Source: a virus. Taken from it: a stretch of 64,000 nt of DNA. The stretch's first letter is position 1, and each line of letters begins with the position of its first letter. Made by a program: the position numbers and the translations under genes. The DNA lies in the IMG/VR virus record IMGVR_UViG_3300029955_000013, positions 19,901 through 83,900 of that record, one strand, 5' to 3'. Below, one piece after another: positions 5,634-52,087 of this stretch. Under the pieces are notes generated by a model. The model made no database searches, was not told the origin of the DNA, and saw nothing but the letters and a program-made list of their open reading frames with translations.

Positions 5634-8288
5634 ATGGCAAATAAAAAGAGTAATTTCTTCAACAATATGAGTAATTTCTTCAAAAAGGTCGACGGCAGCG
5701 ATCTGATGAAGTTTACAGACAACGGCATTAAGACGTTCGATACGCCTATCTCAAGGAGAGAACTCGATAAGAAAAGGGAACTCCAGGTGTTCAGGCAGTA
5801 CCTCCAGTCGAAGAACTGGACCCAGAAGCACATAGAGTTGTATGACGAATACAGGAGGATGGACAACACGTTCCCTATAATAAATGCAGCTATAAGGTTG
5901 TACGGCCAAGAGGTATGTTTGACTGGGGATACGATAGTTACCACGCCTGGCGGTGACAAGACCATAAGGGAGTTATACAATACTAAGAAGGACTCATTCT
6001 ACGTGAAGTCATTTGACAAGATGTTCAACAGGGTAGAGTGGAATGAGGCGACCAACATACAGAACAATGGTGTCAAGCCGGTATTCAAGGTTACCGTCGC
6101 GAGGAACATAAGCTACGACTCCGCGGAGTGGGACAACAAGCTCGAGGCGTCGTTCAAGTGCACCGACAACCACGAGATAATGGTCGGGCCTGGGTTGTTC
6201 AAGCAACTCAAGGACCTTAGGGTGGGCGACAAGATATGGTCTATGTATTACTCTGTAGACCCCGCATGTAGTTGTAAGGTGGCAAACTTCAACACTACTG
6301 TGATAGAGAGTATAGAATCGGCCGGCGAGGAGGAAGTATTCGATCTCGTACACGTGGTCCCTAACCACCACTTTATGATTAAGTTGACTGATAGCTTCTA
6401 TGTTAGCGTGCATAACTGTACGAAGGACACGGATGGTAACGTTATCAAGATCATAACGGAGGACAAGAGGATAAAGAAACTGCTCGAAGACTGCTTCTAC
6501 AAAAACCTAAAAATAAATTCAACATCGTATTACCACGTAAGGAGCCTGCTGAAATTCGGCAACCACTATTCCTTCTTGGACACGAGGCAGGGTGTAGGTG
6601 TACTTGATCTAATCCATCTGCCACCAGAGTCGATAAGGATACAACTTCTTGACAATTCAGCGAGCCTCGATGATTTCAAGTACACTTGGTACGGTCATGG
6701 TCTTGAGTTCGAGCCTTGGGAGATAGTTCACTGGAAGAACATAGAGGATCTTGAAACTGAGCCGTACGGCCAGTCGATCTTGAGGTCTATAGTAGACACC
6801 TACAGAAGGATAATACTGATGAGGGAGGCTATGATAATATACAGGATTACTCGTGCACCACAGAGGCTCCTTTTCAAAATAGATACTACTGGTCTTGGTG
6901 CTGACGATGCGCTTAGGTATGCTGCAGAGTTGAAGAAGCAGATGATGAAGAGGCCGCTTGTTAATCCAATGACAGGTGAGCTTGACTACAAGCATAATCC
7001 GATCTCTATTATGGAGAACCTTTACATGCCAACTGTTGAGGGTGATACGTCTGACGTTAGGGTGCTCGAAGGTGCAACTAATATGGGCGACCTCGAGGAC
7101 TACAAGATAATAAAGGACGATTTGTTTGCCGGCCTATTGATACCTAAGAGTTACTTGACGTTTGAGGAGGATTTGTGCCTTAGGGAGAACACAAAGATAC
7201 TTACCACAGACGGCGTCCTAACTATAGGCGAGATTTCGAGGCTCCTGGAGAGCGACGAGCCGAAGAAGATATACTCTTTATCTTCAAACAAGTATGGCAT
7301 CATACTTAGCGGCAAGATACTTTGGTGTAAAAAGACAAAAGTCGTGGATATGCTTTATAGGATAACCATAAATGGTAAGCACATAGTTGAATCGACGGAT
7401 AACCACCCATTCATGCTCGAAAACTTGAGCTACAGGAGGGCGGATGAGCTTAAGATCGGTGATAGGTTAAAAAACATATTTGATGAGGACTATTACGTTT
7501 CAGACATAGAGGTTTTGAATCTCGATGTCGAAGAATACGTGTATGACCTTGAGGTTGATGAGTATCACAACTTTGCTCTTGAGAGTGGTGTATTTGTTCA
7601 CAATAGTAACAAAGCCGCCCTCGCGCAAGAGGATTTGCGTTTCGCTGGTGCGATTAGGCAGTATCAGGGCAACTACATAGAGGGGTTGCTGCACATAGCA
7701 CTTGTCCATCTACACATGAATGGCTGTTCGCAAGAGGAACTCGGGTCGTTCCAGATACAGATGAACATAAACTCAACCCTTGCCGAGAAGACTAAGAATG
7801 AACTGTTGCAGCAGAGAATAGACCTTGTTAAGAGTGCTTGGGATCCTTCTAATCCTGGTCTAAATGTTATGTCTTACACTGATAGTTTGAAGGAGTTGCT
7901 TCACTACACCGACGAGGAGATTGAGAAGACTTTCAAGGACCAGATGATAGAGAAAAAGATAAACTGGAGACTTTCACAGTTGAATGAGAATGGGTTCTAC
8001 GAGGAGCCTGCAAGCGAGCAAAGGAAAGCATCGCTGCTTGGTATGAGCAGTGAGAACAACGTGTTTTCAAACCTTAACTTCGAGGGTGTTGATAGTACAC
8101 CAGATATTAAGAGAATACTAACAGAGAAGCTCAATATGGAAATAAATGCGTTGCTGCACAAGGTGACTGCGTCCCCGTCCTTGAAGATGATAGAGTCTGT
8201 TATAAGCGAGAATTATAATTATACGAGCAAGCTTAGCAAGACGAGGAGGAACGCAATACGTGTCAAGAAGGAATTGGGTCTCGATTAA
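5634..8288 (+). CDS. T4 gp20-like portal protein with two mini-inteins
   Basis: YGQSIL, LMREAMIIYRITRAPQRLLFKID, DLFAGLLIPKSYL, EDLRFA portal motifs. Confidence 0.9.
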   Translation: MANKKSNFFNNMSNFFKKVDGSDLMKFTDNGIKTFDTPISRRELDKKRELQVFRQYLQSKNWTQKHIELYDEYRRMDNTFPIINAAIRLYGQEVCLTGDTIVTTPGGDKTIRELYNTKKDSFYVKSFDKMFNRVEWNEATNIQNNGVKPVFKVTVARNISYDSAEWDNKLEASFKCTDNHEIMVGPGLFKQLKDLRVGDKIWSMYYSVDPACSCKVANFNTTVIESIESAGEEEVFDLVHVVPNHHFMIKLTDSFYVSVHNCTKDTDGNVIKIITEDKRIKKLLEDCFYKNLKINSTSYYHVRSLLKFGNHYSFLDTRQGVGVLDLIHLPPESIRIQLLDNSASLDDFKYTWYGHGLEFEPWEIVHWKNIEDLETEPYGQSILRSIVDTYRRIILMREAMIIYRITRAPQRLLFKIDTTGLGADDALRYAAELKKQMMKRPLVNPMTGELDYKHNPISIMENLYMPTVEGDTSDVRVLEGATNMGDLEDYKIIKDDLFAGLLIPKSYLTFEEDLCLRENTKILTTDGVLTIGEISRLLESDEPKKIYSLSSNKYGIILSGKILWCKKTKVVDMLYRITINGKHIVESTDNHPFMLENLSYRRADELKIGDRLKNIFDEDYYVSDIEVLNLDVEEYVYDLEVDEYHNFALESGVFVHNSNKAALAQEDLRFAGAIRQYQGNYIEGLLHIALVHLHMNGCSQEELGSFQIQMNINSTLAEKTKNELLQQRIDLVKSAWDPSNPGLNVMSYTDSLKELLHYTDEEIEKTFKDQMIEKKINWRLSQLNENGFYEEPASEQRKASLLGMSSENNVFSNLNFEGVDSTPDIKRILTEKLNMEINALLHKVTASPSLKMIESVISENYNYTSKLSKTRRNAIRVKKELGLD
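5916..6416 (+). mobile_element. mini-intein 1 in portal (167 aa, no endonuclease)
   Basis: Starts CLTGDT, block B CTDNH, ends VHN followed by Cys. Confidence 0.9.
7176..7604 (+). mobile_element. mini-intein 2 in portal (143 aa, no endonuclease)
   Basis: Starts CLRENT, block B STDNHPF, VYDLEV, ends VHN followed by Ser. Confidence 0.9.
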
Positions 8289-23938: not shown

Positions 23939-24862
23939 ATGAATTTGAATTTAGGTAAACAGAAATTTTTTGTGATCTATCAGATTACCAATTTATTGAA
24001 TGGTAAGATTTATGTCGGTGCACATTGTACTTATGATGTGAATGATAAGTACATGGGTAGCTCCAAACACCTCAAAAAAGATATTAAAGAGTTAGGCCGA
24101 CAGAATTTTGCGAAGGAGATTTTACATGTCTTTGACAATAAAGAAGACATGATGGCAAAAGAGGCAGAAATTGTTGATCAAGAGTTCTGTCATCGAACTG
24201 ATACTTACAATCGTATGATTGGCGGGATAACAGAAATGTTATGGAATAATATGGTTTCGGTTCGAGATAAGGATGGAAACTATTTGAAAGTGTATAATGA
24301 TGATCCGCGTTATCTTTCCGGAGAATTTGTTGGTTGTACTAATGGTTTTGTTCCAGTAAAAGATGTTGAAGGAAATTTTTTACAAGTTGCTAAAGATGAC
24401 CCACGTTATTTGTCTGGTGAATTAGTTAGTTCTGCAAAAGGAATTTTTAACGCCAAGGATAAAGACGGTAATGTTTATCAAATCAGTAATAAAGATATAA
24501 GGTGGTTATCTGGAGAGTTGGTTGGATTAACTGCTGGTTTACATGGCAATTGTGCGTTCAGTGGTAAAAAACATTCAGAAGAAACAAAAGCCAAGATCGG
24601 AAAGAAAAATTCTTTAGCTCAAAGTGGAAGTGGTAATTCAATGTTTGGTAAAAAGCAAACAAAAGAATCTAACGATAAACGGCTTGATAAGATGGGTAAA
24701 AGTTTTTTTGTATTTGATACTGATGGCAATTTTATTTCGCAAGAATTTGGAATAAATCAATATGCGAATAAAAATAACTTAACTGCCACAAGCATTGTTC
24801 AGTGTTTGAAAGGTAAACAAATAAGTCATAAAGGTTTTAAGTTTTTATACGAAAATATTTGA
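23939..24862 (+). CDS. GIY-YIG homing endonuclease (Seg-like) with NUMOD3
   Basis: IYQITNLLNGKIYVG; GKKHSEETKAKIG; three DKDGN..DPRYLSGE-type repeats; more AT-rich than flanks. Confidence 0.85.
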   Translation: MNLNLGKQKFFVIYQITNLLNGKIYVGAHCTYDVNDKYMGSSKHLKKDIKELGRQNFAKEILHVFDNKEDMMAKEAEIVDQEFCHRTDTYNRMIGGITEMLWNNMVSVRDKDGNYLKVYNDDPRYLSGEFVGCTNGFVPVKDVEGNFLQVAKDDPRYLSGELVSSAKGIFNAKDKDGNVYQISNKDIRWLSGELVGLTAGLHGNCAFSGKKHSEETKAKIGKKNSLAQSGSGNSMFGKKQTKESNDKRLDKMGKSFFVFDTDGNFISQEFGINQYANKNNLTATSIVQCLKGKQISHKGFKFLYENI

Positions 24863-27155: not shown

Positions 27156-27248
27156 ATGAACAACAAGGTAAACATATTGATATTAGGCACCGAAGGCACA
27201 ACAGAGATTCTCGAAGGAATCCACTGGCTCCCAGCTCTATGTTCGTAA
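27156..27248 (+). CDS. attenuator leader peptide 1, MNNKVNILILGTEGTTEILEGIHWLPALCS
   Basis: 30-codon ORF between promoter and terminator; codons 7-22 are all I/L/G/T/E. Confidence 0.8.
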   Translation: MNNKVNILILGTEGTTEILEGIHWLPALCS

Positions 27249-30352: not shown

Positions 30353-30424
30353 TGTACTATAGGGTAGTGGTAGCCCGTCGGCATCAACAGCCGAAGATCT
30401 CAGGTTCGATTCCTGGTAGTGCAA
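30353..30424 (+). tRNA. atypical tRNA, CAA anticodon with short variable loop
   Basis: TGTACTA/TAGTGCA; TCGGC-ATCAACA-GCCGA. Confidence 0.7.
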
Positions 30425-35188: not shown

Positions 35189-35506
35189 ATGACCAAAGCG
35201 CCTTTTGACGTCTTCTTTACTTTTGATATAAGTTTGAATATTGTGTCTTATGATTCGGATAGTGATACAATGAATTGGTTTAGCCGGTCTGTTCGTAATC
35301 AGATTAAGCTTCACGAGGAAGTTGGAAAGAAGATGGAAGACAGAGGCTATCTTTATGGCTGGTATGAAATATTGGAGACTGATTTTAACTTTCTCACACC
35401 GGCTAAAGAGTCGATCCAGGATAAAAAGGTAAAAGTAAAAGTCGGCGCCTATAAGGATGAACAGTTTATGTATTCTAAGAAAGAATTGGAAAAAATGGTA
35501 AGTTGA
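35189..35506 (+). CDS. hypothetical protein
   Basis: 105-aa ORF. Confidence 0.55.
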   Translation: MTKAPFDVFFTFDISLNIVSYDSDSDTMNWFSRSVRNQIKLHEEVGKKMEDRGYLYGWYEILETDFNFLTPAKESIQDKKVKVKVGAYKDEQFMYSKKELEKMVS

Positions 35507-35516
35507 TAAGTAAGAT

Positions 35517-35592
35517 GGGCGATTACTCCCTCACCCTTATAAGGTGTTGAAAGGATAGTTGGTACAGTTCGGTTCGATCCCGAAATCGCCTA
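35517..35592 (+). tRNA. non-canonical D-armless tRNA with TAT (Ile) anticodon
   Basis: GGGCGAT/ATCGCCT; CACC-CTTATAA-GGTG; TTCGG-TTCGATC-CCGAA. Confidence 0.7.
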
Positions 35593-35594
35593 CA

Positions 35595-38249: not shown

Positions 38250-38323
38250 GGGGAGGTGGCCAAATGGTGAAGGCACTTGACTGATAATCAAGAGATGTGT
38301 GAGTTCGAGCCTCACTCTCCCCA
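38250..38323 (+). tRNA. tRNA-Ile(GAT)
   Basis: GGGGAGG/TCTCCCC; CTTGA-CTGATAA-TCAAG. Confidence 0.88.
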
Positions 38324-38468
38324 CGAGGCAATAGCAGGTAGCTCATGTACGTACCCTTCTGCAGACGTGGTCAAATCGTGAGCGAAGCATCAATCGTACC
38401 TGTCCACTGTAACGTGCAGTAGTAGCTGACTAAAAATACGAGACAAGTTGCGGAGAGACGCAACAAAC

Positions 38469-38547
38469 GGTGAGGTGATGGAATTGGCAGACATTGGGGA
38501 TAGGATTCCCCTGCGCAAGCGTGGAGGTTCGAGTCCTCCCCTTACCA
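38469..38547 (+). tRNA. Leu-type tRNA body with 6-nt anticodon loop (pseudo or non-canonical)
   Basis: GGTGAGG/CCTTACC; GGAATTGGCAGAC; GGGGA-TAGGAT-TCCCC. Confidence 0.65.
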
Positions 38548-38562
38548 CTTAAATTTAACGTT

Positions 38563-38829
38563 ATGACAAGTTTATTGAAGTTTAACAAGTCTGTTACCGA
38601 CAGGTTTACGCCTGCCGAGATCGGTGACATGTTGGTTGGCGAAAAGAAGTATGCCTTAGAGGTTGAGGGTGGTAACCGCGAGCCTACGGGCATCTTTAAG
38701 GACGAGGATGGCGACCTGTATGTTACCATACATGGTTACAAGGTTGGCCGCACAGACCTCGAGGTAGAGTTCGTGGTATTTCCACAATATGACAATCACA
38801 CAATTTTTCAAGCGAGGGTACAGATTTAA
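38563..38829 (+). CDS. hypothetical protein
   Basis: ATG after tRNA. Confidence 0.55.
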   Translation: MTSLLKFNKSVTDRFTPAEIGDMLVGEKKYALEVEGGNREPTGIFKDEDGDLYVTIHGYKVGRTDLEVEFVVFPQYDNHTIFQARVQI

Positions 38830-38911
38830 TGGTAAAGAAGATATTGAGATTTTTCGGTTTGTGTAAACCAGAGAGCGTAGAAGATTTTAAACAGCGTATA
38901 TCCAATAGGTA

Positions 38912-39334
38912 ATGGCAAACTATTTCACGGTTCGGGATCTTATTGAGTTCATAACGAATAACAACATCCCAATGGATGCAAGGATTTATATGCAGCGTGT
39001 GGAAGACGTCTATTTCAACGGAGTGGATATTGGTGGGTGTGGCGGCTATGTGGACGATAACGGTGTTCGCAGTTGTTTTCCGCCTGGTTCTAAAGCTGAT
39101 GGGTGGAAGACTGTCAAGAAAGAGGGTTATGCTTATCGTAAGGCTTTGGAGTTGAACAGAAGGGTAGATGCTGGAGATTTTCACAACAAGGAAGATTTCC
39201 CGGATCTGGAAGACCCTGAGGTTTTAAGGTCGAGCGAGGAAAGGCTCGAGGAGCTCAAGGAACAGTATTATCCTTGCTTCTCTCCGGTTTACTATGCTGA
39301 TCAGAAGGATTTGTTTTTGGATGCACACTATTAA
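38912..39334 (+). CDS. hypothetical protein
   Basis: 140-aa ORF. Confidence 0.65.
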   Translation: MANYFTVRDLIEFITNNNIPMDARIYMQRVEDVYFNGVDIGGCGGYVDDNGVRSCFPPGSKADGWKTVKKEGYAYRKALELNRRVDAGDFHNKEDFPDLEDPEVLRSSEERLEELKEQYYPCFSPVYYADQKDLFLDAHY

Positions 39335-39345
39335 ATAAAAATTAT

Positions 39346-39564
39346 ATGGGATTGGTAGTTAACGTTACTTCTAAAGAGATTATTAGTGGCAAGTTTATGA
39401 AAACGCTCATGAAGTTGCAGGGTTATATTCAGGAAGCCAAGGGTGACATTGAGGTTAGCCAGAGTTACAGTGCTAAAGCTGTGCACTCACGGATGGAGCG
39501 GATCATGGAACTTATGGAAGAAGACATGACCGCATTGGCAAACTCGATACAATTACCAGAATGA
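39346..39564 (+). CDS. hypothetical protein
   Basis: 72-aa ORF. Confidence 0.55.
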   Translation: MGLVVNVTSKEIISGKFMKTLMKLQGYIQEAKGDIEVSQSYSAKAVHSRMERIMELMEEDMTALANSIQLPE

Positions 39565-39806
39565 ACAAGTTTCTGCAAGAGGATTTTAAGGAAATTATTG
39601 ATCAGTTGTCAGAAAAGCTTGATCCAGGTAGCAAAAAAGTATTGCAAGAGGTGATAATGGATAATCTTGTCGAAATAAAAGAGAAATATCGTCTTTACAA
39701 GAATTCAGGCTCTGGCAGGATTAGCCTTAATTATACCCGTATTGCTATTGATTACTGGAGCCAAGTGCCTCATTTGATTGAGTTTCTTGAAAAATTTTTA
39801 GAGTAA
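39561..39806 (+). CDS. hypothetical protein
   Basis: Coupled ORF. Confidence 0.55.
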   Translation: MNKFLQEDFKEIIDQLSEKLDPGSKKVLQEVIMDNLVEIKEKYRLYKNSGSGRISLNYTRIAIDYWSQVPHLIEFLEKFLE

Positions 39807-39807
39807 T

Positions 39808-39880
39808 GGCACTGTAGACCAACGGGAGAGTCAACGGCTTTAAACCCCGTCAAGTGTCGGTTCGAGTCCGACCAGTGCTA
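39808..39880 (+). tRNA. tRNA-Leu(TAA), short variable loop
   Basis: GGCACTG/CAGTGCT; loop TT-TAA-AC. Confidence 0.8.
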
Positions 39881-39894
39881 CAAAAAATAAAAGC

Positions 39895-40428
39895 ATGCCG
39901 CAATCTACGATTGAGTTAAGGGATAAGTTTTGGCACAGGGACGAAGATGGTGTTCCAACGTCGGATGGGATAGAGGAGTGTGAGGACATACTAAGGAAGT
40001 ATGGCGTTACATTTGCTCGTGGGTACATAAGTACCACCGGAATCGATGTTGACATATCTGAAGAACTTAACGATGCCATCGAGTTCTTGGTTTATGAGTG
40101 GGACTATGCTTTCGACGGTTACGTCCAGGACAGGAGTCCGGAGAAAGAGACAGTATCAATATCCAAGGAACTTGCGATAGAGATCATAAAGGTCATAACT
40201 GATAAGACGGATAACGGTTATGAGTGGCGCAATCTCGCAGGCATAGAGTATGAGTTGTTCAAGTTCATGTTCATAGAGGAGATGCCTTATAACTCATACA
40301 AGGACCTAAGCGACGACGAGCTGCGTAAAGCAGTTCACATCTATGCGAAGGACAATCAGTACAGGTGGTATGGTCAGCCCATAGATCAAATAGAAGACGT
40401 GGAAGTAAATGCGGAGGATTTTGGTTAA
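39895..40428 (+). CDS. hypothetical protein
   Basis: 177-aa ORF. Confidence 0.65.
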   Translation: MPQSTIELRDKFWHRDEDGVPTSDGIEECEDILRKYGVTFARGYISTTGIDVDISEELNDAIEFLVYEWDYAFDGYVQDRSPEKETVSISKELAIEIIKVITDKTDNGYEWRNLAGIEYELFKFMFIEEMPYNSYKDLSDDELRKAVHIYAKDNQYRWYGQPIDQIEDVEVNAEDFG

Positions 40429-40534
40429 TAAAGTCGGTGGCATTGTTTGACTTGTGATTTTTTAGTGTAATAAAGTCGGTGCGAATTCTGGATTCGAGTT
40501 GTAAACCGAATAATAAAAACTAAAATTGAAGCAA

Positions 40535-40891
40535 ATGTTTAAGTATGTGTCTATTGACGAGTTAGTTGGTAAGGTCTTTAAAGAAGTAACTGCAAGTGTT
40601 GACGAAATGTATTTTATCGCGGAGACGGGAGAGAGATACACGTTCTATCACGACCAGGACTGTTGTGAGTGTGTTAGCATAGAGGATATTGATGGAGACA
40701 TCAGTGATCTTGTTTGCACTCCGATCACGATGGCTGAGGAGACTGTAATGGCAGCAACGGAAGAAGAGTGTAGTGAAAGTGGCACCTGGACTTACTACCG
40801 TTTTGCGACTGTAAGAGGTTACGTTACGGTTAGGTGGTTTGGTTCTTCTAACGGCTATTATTCTGAGGGCGTTTCGTTCGTGAAGTGTTAA
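40535..40891 (+). CDS. conserved hypothetical phage protein
   Basis: HDQDCCE.V, TWTYY.FAT..G.VT.RW.G.SNGYYSE. Confidence 0.75.
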   Translation: MFKYVSIDELVGKVFKEVTASVDEMYFIAETGERYTFYHDQDCCECVSIEDIDGDISDLVCTPITMAEETVMAATEEECSESGTWTYYRFATVRGYVTVRWFGSSNGYYSEGVSFVKC

Positions 40892-40920
40892 GATGTTTGG
40901 GGTGAAACTCCCCATAAATT

Positions 40921-40993
40921 GGTCCTGTAGCCCAATGGCAGAGGCGATAGGCTTAGAACCTATTTAGTGTCAGTTCGAGTCTGACCAGGACTA
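40921..40993 (+). tRNA. tRNA-Leu(TAG), short variable loop
   Basis: GGTCCTG/CAGGACT; ATAGG-CTTAGAA-CCTAT. Confidence 0.88.
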
Positions 40994-41195
40994 CTTTAAA
41001 ATGAGCAAATGGGTGTTGTAATTTTCTTTGCGTTATTGTTAGCAGCTTTTTTGATCGCTATGGTTATCGTTGCTTATGATTTTTACTGCGAGAGGAAGGA
41101 GAAAGATGGCAACTTGACATGGAAGCAATATTTTGATAACAAGAAACCTGATATGGGTGACTATTAACGTTTAATATTGCTCTATAAATAATTTT

Positions 41196-41657
41196 ATGAA
41201 AGATTTTGTTAAGAAGATCGACTCTATAGATCAGTTTCCGCCAGAATGTCTTGCGGAATGTTTGCCTGATTTTTTAAAGAAGTCTCGTTCGAAAGATAAT
41301 GAGCTTGAGTTGGACGATCTGATAGAGGTCATAGTTTGTTATGGCGATCGCGAGGAGTCAATCGAATCGCTTTACGTTAATTTCACTTATAGCTACACAA
41401 CAAAGAACTGGTTGTTCCAAGCTTTCGGTAGCCAGTATCGTAAGGGTGATTTGCTTTGTGATGAGGAAAATGAAAACTACATAACGGTTACAGACATTGC
41501 TGCGAAGAATAAGTACAATGAAGAGCGGCATGATAAGAAGAAGGAGGCTCGCATAAGGCAGTGGGGTGATTTGTTTTCGAGGCACACGAAAGAAGAGTTA
41601 CTTGTAGTGCTGAGCCAAATTGATTTCCCTAAAAGCATTATCGGCAAGATAAGATAG
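41196..41657 (+). CDS. hypothetical protein
   Basis: 153-aa ORF. Confidence 0.6.
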   Translation: MKDFVKKIDSIDQFPPECLAECLPDFLKKSRSKDNELELDDLIEVIVCYGDREESIESLYVNFTYSYTTKNWLFQAFGSQYRKGDLLCDEENENYITVTDIAAKNKYNEERHDKKKEARIRQWGDLFSRHTKEELLVVLSQIDFPKSIIGKIR

Positions 41658-41670
41658 TTATAAAAATGTT

Positions 41671-41742
41671 AATCGAGTACCTCAGAGGCCAGAGGCCAGA
41701 GGGATCGACGGAAAGTCGGTGGTTCGACTCCACTCTCGATTT
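41671..41742 (+). pseudogene. tRNA-like element lacking a proper anticodon arm
   Basis: AATCGAG/CTCGATT acceptor and GGTGG-TTCGACT-CCACT intact; AGAGGCC tandem duplication in D region. Confidence 0.6.
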
Positions 41743-41757
41743 CAATAAATTATTCAC

Positions 41758-42066
41758 ATGATAGTCAAGAAGAGATTTCCAAGTTTTTTCAGCGGCTACG
41801 AGGCCGACAAGACGATACACGAGGTATCTACGCATGATGAGCTGATGGAAATAAATTGGGTAAAGGACAAGGTTAAAATTCCAGGTCACATTGGGATTTT
41901 CTACTCGAAGATTCACTTGAACGATACGCCTTATTATCTCATGGCTCTTTCCAAAAGTGATAAAGAAATTATTTATTCTGTTATAGGATACGTGTACGGT
42001 GATGCGGCCCTTTTAGGTTTGACCGACTATACAGACTATATCAAGAAATACAACAGTACCAAGTGA
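41758..42066 (+). CDS. hypothetical protein
   Basis: 102-aa ORF. Confidence 0.6.
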   Translation: MIVKKRFPSFFSGYEADKTIHEVSTHDELMEINWVKDKVKIPGHIGIFYSKIHLNDTPYYLMALSKSDKEIIYSVIGYVYGDAALLGLTDYTDYIKKYNSTK

Positions 42067-42112
42067 AATTAGCTGTACCGCTTCAAGAGATAGTGGAGTT
42101 TGCGGTACGAAT

Positions 42113-42214
42113 GCCCGGTTGGCGAAACTGGTAGACGCACTGCCTTGTACTTTTAACGAGGAACAAGGTGGCAGCGCCCGAAAGGGTGTGGGAGTTCGAA
42201 TCTCCCATCGGGTA
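42113..42214 (+). tRNA. tRNA-Leu(GAG) with 18-nt insertion (42148-42165) inside the anticodon
   Basis: Removing the insert gives CTGCC-TTGAGGT-GGCAG; Leu D-loop and long variable arm intact. Confidence 0.8.
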
Positions 42215-42284
42215 GGAGTATAAAGTTAATACCTGCACGTGGTATGCTCTGCACACAGATTTATTCTGTGACTAAATTTAACTT

Positions 42285-42521
42285 ATGATCGCGGAATTTA
42301 CTGACGACCTGGTTGATTTCGTCGATCACCATGATTGTTCCATGCACCTCGACATGTTCGACAGCGCCAAGGATAAGGTTTTTAAGTTCGGCGACTGGAA
42401 GCTTAGGTTTGTCCACGACGAAATTGCTGATTGTGATGTTTTTTACGTTTCTTTGATCTCAGATTTAAAGAGACTGAACAATGAGTACAAGCCATACCCG
42501 AATTCCGGAAAGCCTCGATGA
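42285..42521 (+). CDS. hypothetical protein
   Basis: 78-aa ORF. Confidence 0.5.
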   Translation: MIAEFTDDLVDFVDHHDCSMHLDMFDSAKDKVFKFGDWKLRFVHDEIADCDVFYVSLISDLKRLNNEYKPYPNSGKPR

Positions 42522-42885
42522 GGCGGTAGACATAATAGTATCAAGCACCTCGCCGGAGGTGATAGAGAAATACAAGACCCTCACTGAAAAAGAGATCCTC
42601 AGCGGATCGCACCACTCGCTCGGCATGAGCATTAGGAACAACTGGCACCTATGGTGGGAGGAAAGTCATACTTACGATGAGTGGCCAAAAGAAAAACCAA
42701 AGTTAGTAGAAGAGTTTAATGCGCTCGGCATATACCATGCAGACGACATGAGCGGCATCATATTGTCTTCCGCCATAAGGCGGATACAGGACAAGCCACG
42801 TAAGCTCAATGAGGAAGTTGCGAAGTACAAGAAGTTCTGGGCGAAGCAGGGCTTCGAGGATGGGATATTTAAACCTAAAAAATAA
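42481..42885 (+). CDS. conserved hypothetical protein
   Basis: H.SLGM.IRN.W.LW...GI.HADDMS.II. Confidence 0.7.
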   Translation: MSTSHTRIPESLDEAVDIIVSSTSPEVIEKYKTLTEKEILSGSHHSLGMSIRNNWHLWWEESHTYDEWPKEKPKLVEEFNALGIYHADDMSGIILSSAIRRIQDKPRKLNEEVAKYKKFWAKQGFEDGIFKPKK

Positions 42886-42900
42886 TTATATTTTACATAA

Positions 42901-44037
42901 ATGTTTGGACAGATTAACACAAGGAAGGACTTGCCGCACTATGGTTACCCTTCGATCGAGCAGTTTAGGACGGTGATACACAATGTGAACCACAAGGCTC
43001 ACTACGTTGGCCAGGACGAGAACGGAGATGCCATATACGATCAGACGAGACAGAAGCCGACGCTAAAATTCATCGGTACCACGAAGCTGCATGGCACTAA
43101 CTGCGCGGTGGTAATTGACATCAAGAACGAGATAGTTTACTTCCAGTCGAGAGATAACGTGATAACGCCGGCTGAGGACAATGCGGGAGCAGCTACTTAC
43201 CTCGCCTCTATACAGCAGGACATTGTGAATATGGTTAAGGAGGTGATCCAGGAAGAATTCTACGCAAACGAAGTGTATAATTTCACGATACTCGAGACTA
43301 TGCACAAAGAGGACAAGAACAAGTTCGATACGATAGTTATTTACGGCGAGTGGTGCGGCGGCAGCATTCAGAAGGGAGTGGCTTTGAACGGGCTTGACAA
43401 GATGTTCGTAGTGTTCGACGTCGCCTTCATAGACAGCACCGCCGAGATAAAGCACAAGCGCTGGAAGTCTTACGATTTCGTGCAGAGGATCAAGTTGCCA
43501 AGCAAGAGGGTTTACAACATACTCGACTACAAGGTTTGGGACATCGACATCGATTTTAAGGCGCCTACGTTGTCGCAAAATGATTTGATTGACATAACTA
43601 CTGAGGTTGAGGCTCACTGTCCCGTTGGGCTTGCTTTTGGCAAGGATGGCATAGGAGAGGGAGTTGTTTGGAAGTGCATTACGCCGCCCTACGACGGTGA
43701 TTCGGGCTACTGGATGAAGGTCAAGGGGGAGAAACACTCTTCCTCGAAGGTGAAGACAATTGCGGCAGTCGATGTTGAGAAAGTAAGGAACGTGATTGAG
43801 TTCGTCGACAACGTCGTGACGGAGAGCAGGTGTCTGCAGTCGATCGACAAATTGAGGGAGGCTGGCAAGCCGCTGACGAGAGCGAGCCTCGGCGATTACC
43901 TCAGGTGGATATTCAACGACATCGTAAAGGAGGAGACCGACACGATGGTCGCGAACGGCATAGAGGCCAAGGCTGTTGGCGGTGCGATTTCCAACAAGGC
44001 GAGGGAGTGGTTCTTCGCGAACGAGTTGAATTTTTAA
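42901..44037 (+). CDS. RNA ligase, Rnl2 family
   Basis: Motif I KLHGTN, YGEW.G, FVVFD, GEGVV, KVK. Confidence 0.85.
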   Translation: MFGQINTRKDLPHYGYPSIEQFRTVIHNVNHKAHYVGQDENGDAIYDQTRQKPTLKFIGTTKLHGTNCAVVIDIKNEIVYFQSRDNVITPAEDNAGAATYLASIQQDIVNMVKEVIQEEFYANEVYNFTILETMHKEDKNKFDTIVIYGEWCGGSIQKGVALNGLDKMFVVFDVAFIDSTAEIKHKRWKSYDFVQRIKLPSKRVYNILDYKVWDIDIDFKAPTLSQNDLIDITTEVEAHCPVGLAFGKDGIGEGVVWKCITPPYDGDSGYWMKVKGEKHSSSKVKTIAAVDVEKVRNVIEFVDNVVTESRCLQSIDKLREAGKPLTRASLGDYLRWIFNDIVKEETDTMVANGIEAKAVGGAISNKAREWFFANELNF

Positions 44038-44084
44038 ACATAATAAATGGGAGGAGGCATAAAGGCTTCCTTCCTCTTTTAAGC

Positions 44085-44537
44085 ATGAAACCTATACTGG
44101 AGATAAAGAGCAAAACAGGCGTGTTGCATTTCAGGCGTTGGAAGCTGTTCGGTACGGCCTGGTTCAGCGTTTTCCTGCACGGTATCTATGAGAGCGACAA
44201 AGACAAACACATGCACAACCATCCGTGGTCCTATTGCTCGATAATAGTCAAGGGTGAGTATGTTGAGGAGTATCTCGATGGATCGGACACGAAGATTAGG
44301 TTCAGAAATTCGAGGCCTTTGAGGAACTTTTACAATCCAAAGTACTGGCCTCAACTGTTCAAGTTTCAGCCATCGACGAGGTTCCACAAGATTCTAAAAC
44401 TGGTTACGCCGGTTGTTTACTCAATCGTAATCGCGAGGACGAACGACACGAGGCTTTGGGGATATAACGTTGACGGCAAATTCATCGACAACATTACTTA
44501 CAGGGAATTGAAGAATAATGGGAAACTTGAAGATTGA
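44085..44537 (+). CDS. hypothetical cupin-like protein
   Basis: HNHPW...G.Y.E...FH motif. Confidence 0.6.
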   Translation: MKPILEIKSKTGVLHFRRWKLFGTAWFSVFLHGIYESDKDKHMHNHPWSYCSIIVKGEYVEEYLDGSDTKIRFRNSRPLRNFYNPKYWPQLFKFQPSTRFHKILKLVTPVVYSIVIARTNDTRLWGYNVDGKFIDNITYRELKNNGKLED

Positions 44538-44585
44538 TATAACCACCGGTTTCAGTTAAAATGTTTTTATTAAATTTTAAGTAGA

Positions 44586-44846
44586 ATGACGAGGCTTGAG
44601 AAGATAAATGGTTTCCTGTCAGATCCTGTATTTATGGCCAAGGCGAAGCCTGAGGTTATAGAAAAGTTCAAGAAAGAGGCTGCTTACCTTGATGGGGTGG
44701 TATTCGATACGATCGTATTGCCGGTTGTGGAGTGGCTCAAGAGCACAAAAGTGAAAGTTAATTTCGACCCCGAGAATAAGTTCGTACATTTGAAGTTCAG
44801 AAGCGACATAAAAAACCACGTAATACATGAGATACACTTCTCTTAA
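44586..44846 (+). CDS. small protein resembling ValRS C-terminal coiled-coil arm
   Basis: L.DP.FMAKA..EVIEK. Confidence 0.5.
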   Translation: MTRLEKINGFLSDPVFMAKAKPEVIEKFKKEAAYLDGVVFDTIVLPVVEWLKSTKVKVNFDPENKFVHLKFRSDIKNHVIHEIHFS

Positions 44847-44855
44847 AACAATTTT

Positions 44856-45053
44856 ATGAAGATAGTAGACACTTTTCTGGTATACGATGCTGACGATCGC
44901 TATTACAAGACCTTTAAGAAGATACATTTGCTTGTAAATGGCAGTTACGTAGAGGAGATTCCGGGCATGAAGGACACGGATTATAAGGTAGTGTCGAAGG
45001 AAGACTTCGACCGTTGGTCCGCAATGATGTCCGAGAAATTAAAAGTTAGTTAG
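44856..45053 (+). CDS. hypothetical protein
   Basis: 65-aa ORF. Confidence 0.5.
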   Translation: MKIVDTFLVYDADDRYYKTFKKIHLLVNGSYVEEIPGMKDTDYKVVSKEDFDRWSAMMSEKLKVS

Positions 45054-45134
45054 CCCCTTGCTGTAATTGGTTAGCCAGGTTGGTCTCAAAAACCAGCGCA
45101 GAAATGCATGAGGGTTCGATTCCCTCAGGGGTTA
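45052..45134 (+). tRNA. tRNA-Leu(CAA)
   Basis: AGCCCCT/AGGGGTT; TTGGT-CTCAAAA-ACCAG; variable arm GCA-GAAA-TGC. Confidence 0.85.
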
Positions 45135-45225
45135 CGCAGTCTTTTCTGTGGTCGTAAAAATATAATTTTGGACTTAATTTTTTTTTCATTTACTCCGTTG
45201 TATTTAAAGAAAAAACGGGGTAAAA

Positions 45226-51932: not shown

Positions 51933-52019
51933 AAGAAGTGAACCGGCTGGATCAGGAGCCAGTTGTGAAAGGCTGGTGGGCTCTAACAGGCCTTGGGAGT
52001 TCGAGTCTCCTCACTTATT
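51933..52019 (+). tRNA. non-canonical Ser-type tRNA (8/4- or 9/4-like fold, irregular anticodon loop)
   Basis: AAGTGA/TCACTT; GGAG-TTCGAGT-CTCC; CCAGT-TGTGAAAG-GCTGG; variable arm like neighbouring Ser tRNAs. Confidence 0.6.
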
Positions 52020-52087
52020 CTTTGGTTTAAACCATTATTAATTCGTTGTATTCTTTTGGGTTTGTATTTAAAGTATAAACGTTATTA

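Follow-up and report, generated by a model that had tools for sequence, protein, structure and literature searches.

An 18-nt insert splits the anticodon of a tRNA-Leu(GAG) gene in a T4-like peat phage, upstream of an Rnl2-type RNA ligase gene: a possible minimal tRNA intron or a recently disabled gene

The window analyzed here is a stretch of 64 kb taken from an 83.9-kb IMG/VR record, estimated to be about 41% complete, that derives from peat metagenomes. At positions 42113 to 42214 (+) lies a tRNA-Leu(GAG) gene with an 18-nt insertion that splits the anticodon, as a preliminary description of this DNA had claimed. The Rfam tRNA model (RF00005) matches the locus over model positions 1 to 71 with 38.9 bits (gathering score, 29) and leaves 21 nt of the anticodon loop unaligned. 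A leucine-specific covariance model, R1, which was built from 37 phage and bacterial tRNA-Leu genes with long variable arms, scores the locus at 64.0 bits (E value, 3.9e-15; rank 4 within the window) and likewise places all of the extra bases within the anticodon loop. Default ARAGORN makes no call at these positions, but when the exons are joined in silico the resulting 84 nt are called as tRNA-Leu(GAG), and their fold is a clean cloverleaf that includes a variable arm. The 5' exon (42113 to 42147, +) comprises the 5' strand of the acceptor stem, the D arm, the 5' strand of the anticodon stem, U32, U33, and G34. The insert, TACTTTTAACGAGGAACA (42148 to 42165, +), stands between anticodon bases 34 and 35. 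The 3' exon (42166 to 42214, +) opens with A35, G36, G37, and U38 and continues with the 3' strand of the anticodon stem, a GAAA-capped variable arm, the T arm, the 3' strand of the acceptor stem, and the discriminator A73; CCA is not encoded. With the insert removed, the gene has the Leu-type D arm, long variable arm, A73, and UUGAGGU loop of a bacterial type II tRNA-Leu(GAG).

The boundaries of the insert are exact, because intact tRNA-Leu(GAG) contigs of other organisms, from four independent peat runs, align up to position 42147, continue with AGGTGGTAGCG, and resume at 42166. These contigs also settle that the insert lies at 34/35 and not at 37/38, and the expectation that deleting 42148 to 42165 would give back a canonical loop holds well. 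The 27-mer formed by the joined flanks, GGTAGACGCACTGCCTTGAGGTGGCAG, is part of bacterial tRNA-Leu(GAG) genes and occurs exactly in at least 120 GTDB genomes, mostly of Alphaproteobacteria (Hyphomonadaceae, Terricaulis, Pseudolabrys, and others). The best full-length match to the joined tRNA agrees at 69 of 84 positions without a gap. Read by eye, the acceptor stem carries wobble pairs at G1-U72 and G6-U67 where the bacterial homologues look fully paired. With introns allowed (ARAGORN -i), the locus was instead parsed as a tRNA-Val(AAC) whose stem is shifted and holds an intron of 15 nt; we rejected this parse because the body is of the Leu type and the 34/35 junctions are fixed by the outside tRNAs. 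The locus is a real tRNA-Leu(GAG) gene of the alphaproteobacterial type, carried by a T4-like phage from peat.

The insert is present, unchanged, in independent peat assemblies, namely on a 10-kb contig (X3) and on a 398-nt contig that spans the insert (X5), and no phage contig in the Logan peat assemblies joins across or skips it. A divergent patch at 41693 to 41708 distinguishes two haplotypes, and the insert occurs on both, X3 carrying the variant patch and the window the reference form; this statement rests on contigs that span both the insert and the patch. The earlier suggestion that the insertion might be an assembly error did not hold up, since X3 and X5, Logan assemblies of other peat samples, show no differences over both junctions and no contig lacks the insert; an assembly or chimera artefact is now so improbable as to be negligible. 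The patch itself belongs to a neighboring tRNA-like gene (41671 to 41742, +), which scores 34.1 bits with Rfam, was missed by ARAGORN, and has a noncanonical anticodon arm. Compared with the window, this arm in X3 and X5 shows eight substitutions and one inserted G. The anticodon arm of this gene is strain variable, and the variant form has a perfect 5-bp stem, CCGAC/GTCGG, as read by eye.

The phage is T4-like, and its T4-type portal gene (5634 to 8288, +) holds an intein splicing domain. The record carries a tmRNA gene, 27 tRNAs called by ARAGORN, and cut-down homologues of aminoacyl-tRNA synthetases, and directly after the tmRNA gene stands a gene for a SegE-like GIY-YIG homing endonuclease (23939 to 24862, +). 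The codons CTT and CTC together make up 40% of the leucine codons in the phage open reading frames (ORFs), and ARAGORN finds no second CUY-reading tRNA in the fragment. Ahead of the first tRNA lies a leader ORF of 30 codons (27156 to 27248, +), MNNKVNILILGTEGTTEILEGIHWLPALCS, which indeed contains the two CTC codons pointed out in the preliminary description. Six tRNAs between 38250 and 45135 (+) have Leu-type bodies that score 56 to 73 bits with R1. The long variable arm is missing in the tRNAs at 39808 (UAA) and 40921 (UAG), and the one at 30353 (CAA; 38.5 bits) likewise has short-arm length. The tRNA at 38250 carries the Ile anticodon GAU, and that at 38469 has AGG or an odd loop on a Leu body. 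From their sequences, the Leu-type bodies at 38250 to 45135 look like a family of paralogues remodelled at the anticodon. A weak tRNA-like match with a good T arm (51934 to 52020, +; 22.2 bits with R1) was not called by ARAGORN and did not reach the Rfam gathering score. A tRNA-Thr proposed by ARAGORN -i at 35328 to 35593, with a 171-nt "intron," has a poor acceptor stem and an "intron" that resembles an ordinary ORF, and we regard it as a false call. Many Alphaproteobacteria from soil and freshwater (L167 to L286) have exactly the anticodon arm that the split gene would have if uninterrupted (the joined flanks of 42130 to 42174). This identity, together with the affinity of the phage RNA ligase to those of Caulobacter and Rhizobium phages, hints at an alphaproteobacterial host.

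The RNA ligase gene (42901 to 44037, +) begins 687 nt downstream of the split tRNA gene, in agreement with the distance of about 690 nt given for an Rnl2 ligase at the outset. Its 378-amino-acid product matches Pfam RNA_ligase (4.5e-17), phrog_548 (6e-61), and the profile of T4 Rnl2 (2HVQ; 2e-11), and it shares 44 to 46% identity with the RNA ligases encoded by phages RsoM2USA and Cr30, of which the Cr30 gene is annotated as RNA ligase. The gene is intact and keeps the residues that are invariant in the alignment, K62, H64, G65, T66, and N67 as well as K273 and K275, which we take to be nucleotidyl-transferase motifs I and V, respectively. It is a candidate for the enzyme that would seal the split tRNA. 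Just upstream of it, at 42481 to 42885 (+), is a gene for a DUF6794 protein, which is also present on a longer, 146-kb contig of the phage. Its predicted model is confident (pLDDT, 91) and all helical, and the comparison with solved structures gave no match (best Foldseek E value, 1.9; best VIA Z score, 4.1). Across 43 mostly viral homologues the residues H44, R52, N53, H86, D88, D89, and S91 are invariant, so the protein may be an enzyme; none of the other fetched loci has DUF6794 beside Rnl2. A neighboring 276-amino-acid protein is glycosyltransferase-like, the remaining neighbors have no Pfam or PHROG match, and no neighbor looks nuclease-like. Over the 83.9-kb record, about 41% of the genome, there was no match to tRNA_int_endo (PF01974), RNase III, Tpt1, AAA_33, or PNK3P, which leaves the fragment with neither an endonuclease gene for such cuts nor a Pnkp-type end-healing gene.

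In the minimum-energy fold of the unspliced arm, the anticodon stem is shifted by three bases, and the insert and its flanks form a 9-bp helix that runs from C28-G59 to U36-A51. An A/A mismatch separates this helix from a weak stem of 4 bp, which is closed by a UAAC loop. The extension of the arm by CCTTGT/ACAAGG pairing, noted by eye at the start, is part of this fold. The proposal that the extended arm presents TAA at its tip as an anticodon finds no support and was rejected: in place of a 7-nt anticodon loop with U33, the weak stem there carries a loop of 4 nt, UAAC. The arm has an energy of -12.6 kcal/mol, compared with -8.4 +/- 1.9 kcal/mol for shuffled inserts, a stability that 3.5% of the shuffled inserts match or exceed. 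In the GAG register, both junctions fall within one helix with a 2-nt 3' stagger (arm pairs 6-27, 7-26, 8-25, and 9-24). About 6 to 7% of shuffled or random 18-mers also place one helix over both junctions, since the flanks CCUU and AAGG already favor it. The extended helix and the 2-nt stagger are thus weakly nonrandom, and the fold is suggestive, not compelling. The insert also creates a T-rich run, TTGTACTTTT, right after a weak 5-bp hairpin, GGTAG/CTGCC (stem, 42130 to 42144; whole region, 42130 to 42157, +), and this terminator-like site could in principle truncate the transcript. A possible mini-ORF, with GAGGA at 42158 to 42162, GTG at 42168, and a frame of 15 codons, was dropped, having no parallel in other loci.

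The insert fits no known cutting rule among the three that we applied, those of group I introns, of the bulge-helix-bulge, and of Escherichia coli RNase III. A group I intron usually spans some 200 nt or more, is built around a conserved catalytic core (P3 to P8), begins after a U at the end of the exon, and has G as its last base. The remark that the insert is too short for this class was correct: it has 18 nt, is preceded by G34, and has A as its last base, and no Rfam intron family was found in 41500 to 43000 at a relaxed threshold or in the whole window at the gathering threshold. A bulge-helix-bulge has two 3-nt bulges that hold the splice sites, with a 4-bp helix between them. Here G29-C30-C31-U32 would need to pair with insert bases 13 to 16 (GGAA), only two of the four pairs can form, and the predicted folds place the junctions inside a continuous helix, not in bulges. 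The 2-nt 3' overhang across one helix is of the RNase III type, as it is in 6 to 7% of random inserts. However, for E. coli RNase III at least 11 bp must separate the cut from the tetraloop, as in its minimal hairpin substrate uR1.1 (Pertzev and Nicholson 2006, PMC1540722). The arm offers 8 bp on the tRNA side and about six layers on the intron side, with two G-U pairs and the A/A mismatch counted among these layers.

Collections of viral, metagenome, and genome contigs held no match to a pattern for tRNA-Leu(GAG) interrupted at 34/35 by 8 to 38 nt; the uninterrupted form is common. The 18-mer has no second copy in the window and is not a repeat or mobile unit, and its four viral matches elsewhere are all chance occurrences within coding sequence. 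The same insert does not recur in related phages or in other tRNAs, as it would in a conserved family of phage tRNA mini-introns. A megablast search against phages gave no match, a single-protein search of viral contigs with Rnl2 gave no close relative, and the loci found by searching with an Rnl2 alignment share no neighboring protein with the window and so offer no usable synteny. The closest Rnl2 relatives are 56 to 59% identical; as this phage lineage is so poorly sampled, missing conservation of the insert is weak evidence either way. We screened 160 Rnl2-bearing loci with ARAGORN, introns allowed, and with R1. Two Rnl2-bearing phage loci have tRNAs that pass the Rfam threshold and carry anticodon-loop inserts, one of 34 nt (L029, 18757 to 18866) and one of 48 nt (L074, 9262 to 9391). 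A Leu-type body in L084 (528 to 634; 45.6 bits) has 34 nt in place of 13 model positions in the arm and lies 2.5 kb upstream of its own Rnl2 gene, whose product is 50% identical to the peat phage Rnl2. Leu-type bodies in L288 (330 to 431) and L289 (899 to 1001) have remodelled anticodon arms. These five cases hold 26 to 50 extra bases in or around the anticodon arm and share no common geometry; the D arms in L084, L288, and L289 are of the Leu type and nearly identical to that of the split tRNA-Leu. Scrambled tRNA-like genes occur in related phages (L043, L288, and L289). Short words are common to the peat insert and other inserts (AACGAGGA with L013, AGGAACA with L029, and AACGAG with L043; shuffle P values, 0.023 and 0.0007), and these were picked before the P values were computed, the motif is not enriched overall, and the contexts differ. 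Two of the three carriers, L013 and L043, score below the Rfam gathering threshold, and we treat the words as a lead, not as evidence.

Our preferred reading, held tentatively and at somewhat less than even chances, is that the insert is a mini-intron removed by proteins. We infer a pathway in which the gene would be transcribed and the insert would pair with the flanks of the anticodon loop in the precursor, masking the anticodon in a long hairpin. A host or phage endonuclease would then cut both junctions across one helix of the folded arm, with a 2-nt 3' stagger and with 3'-OH and 5'-phosphate ends, and an RNA ligase such as the neighboring Rnl2 would seal G34 to A35. The product would be the sole CUY-reading tRNA of the phage's array. 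This reading is favored by the canonical tRNA that clean excision yields from an intact, strongly Leu-type body, by the extension of the anticodon helix with both junctions in one helix, by an insert that independent peat assemblies share and that occurs on two haplotypes, by the lack of another CUY reader in a fragment with so many CUY codons, and by an Rnl2 with family-invariant residues 687 nt downstream. The 34- and 48-nt inserts of L029 and L074 in Rnl2-bearing loci point the same way. Against it stand the singleton insert, the missing bulge-helix-bulge, a hairpin short of the RNase III length, a fragment without an endonuclease gene, the weak structural statistics, and the scrambled arms at 41671 to 41742 and in L084, L043, L288, and L289, which clean excision could not repair. 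In T4, broken anticodon loops fall to a specialized ligase, Rnl1, and Rnl2 acts preferentially at nicks in duplex RNA, which also disfavors the mini-intron; moreover, the proximity of Rnl2 would be expected anyway, because the gene sits inside a general tRNA island. Introns that are not group I have been published for tRNAs of the Lak megaphages (PMC6784885), and they too favor the mini-intron. The more specific proposition, that this is a true intron and the smallest case so far of protein-dependent tRNA splicing in bacterial viruses, with an excising enzyme guided by distance from the tRNA body or by a short duplex and with Rnl2 as the sealing enzyme, we consider possible but less likely than not.

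The same observations would also suit a young pseudogene, an explanation to which we give about one chance in three. The tRNA-Leu(GAG), probably taken from an alphaproteobacterial host lineage, would have been hit by an 18-bp insertion, a scar of repair or recombination, and would no longer yield a decoding tRNA, the rest of the gene not yet having decayed. The absence of any homologue of the insert from three collections, its failure to fit an endonuclease rule, the ease with which 3.5 to 7% of random inserts reach its fold and stagger, the acceptor wobbles, and the several aberrant tRNA-like genes in the arrays of this phage and its relatives all agree with such an accident. Less easily explained as an accident are a 64-bit tRNA body with no other lesion, the persistence of the insert on two haplotypes, its position exactly within the anticodon, the site class reported for other phage tRNA inserts, and the loss of the only CUY reader from a phage in which CUY codons make up 40% of the leucine codons. 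An unlikely third explanation is that the 102-nt form is itself functional, processed and leucylated without splicing, with a long anticodon arm that bars it from decoding. Leucyl-tRNA synthetase does not read the anticodon, so the 102-nt RNA could still be leucylated; its role could be to decoy anticodon nucleases or other defenses aimed at tRNAs, or it could be a leucine donor or regulator. Its acceptor, D, variable, and T arms and its A73 are all intact and of the Leu type, other phages have Leu-type bodies with expanded or remodelled arms (L084, L288, and L289), and the arm of the neighbor at 41671 to 41742 differs between strains by eight substitutions and one insertion. However, the expanded arms share no conserved sequence or structure, a function of this kind is not documented for such RNAs, and the model does not require the clean restoration of a canonical loop. 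The small probability that remains falls to other explanations.

If the mini-intron is real, the split tRNA would be a natural substrate for Rnl2, and the phage's only CUY-reading leucine tRNA would be switched on after transcription. If the gene is dead, it documents how phage tRNA arrays, this one probably seeded from alphaproteobacterial tRNAs, decay or are remodelled at the anticodon arm. To our knowledge, protein-catalyzed tRNA splicing has not been demonstrated in bacteria or their viruses, and we know of no natural substrate for the phage Rnl2 ligases. Since its junctions are exact and confirmed by outside sequences, and since a ligase gene lies close by, the 102-nt precursor makes a very small and cheap substrate that can test whether such a pathway exists.

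Among known systems, the tRNA introns of archaea and eukaryotes, removed by EndA/Sen enzymes at a bulge-helix-bulge, are often about 11 to 60 nt long and extend the anticodon stem by pairing. The peat phage insert resembles them in length and in its pairing with the anticodon region and differs in having no bulge-helix-bulge at 34/35 and no tRNA_int_endo match in the 84-kb fragment; we know of no bacterium or bacteriophage in which tRNA splicing by an EndA/Sen-type enzyme has been shown. The group I intron of cyanobacterial and plastid tRNA-Leu(UAA) genes lies between bases 34 and 35, as Xu et al. reportedly described in 1990. The kind of tRNA and, on that account, the site are alike, but the peat phage insert is 18 nt long, comes after G34, has a terminal A, and matches no Rfam intron. 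In T4 tRNA repair, PrrC breaks the anticodon loop of host tRNA-Lys, Pnkp heals the ends, and Rnl1 ligates them. A phage RNA ligase acting on a break in the anticodon loop would be common to both, whereas the ligase here is of the Rnl2 type, not Rnl1, and no Pnkp-type match was found in the fragment. RNase III leaves 5'-phosphate and 3'-OH ends, so after cuts of that type Rnl2 could seal without healing. Like the RNase III substrate uR1.1, the arm has its junctions over one helix such that cuts would give a 2-nt 3' overhang, with about six layers to the loop compared with the 11 bp needed in uR1.1 (PMC1540722). The Lak megaphages have tRNA introns that were described as "enigmatic" and left unexplained (Devoto et al. 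2019, PMC6784885). Like the peat phage insert, they interrupt phage tRNA genes, are not recognizable as self-splicing introns, and have no known removal mechanism; the peat phage insert differs in being a singleton and a plain hairpin. The insert is either the smallest example so far of these unexplained short tRNA introns of large phages or the mark of a recently disabled gene.
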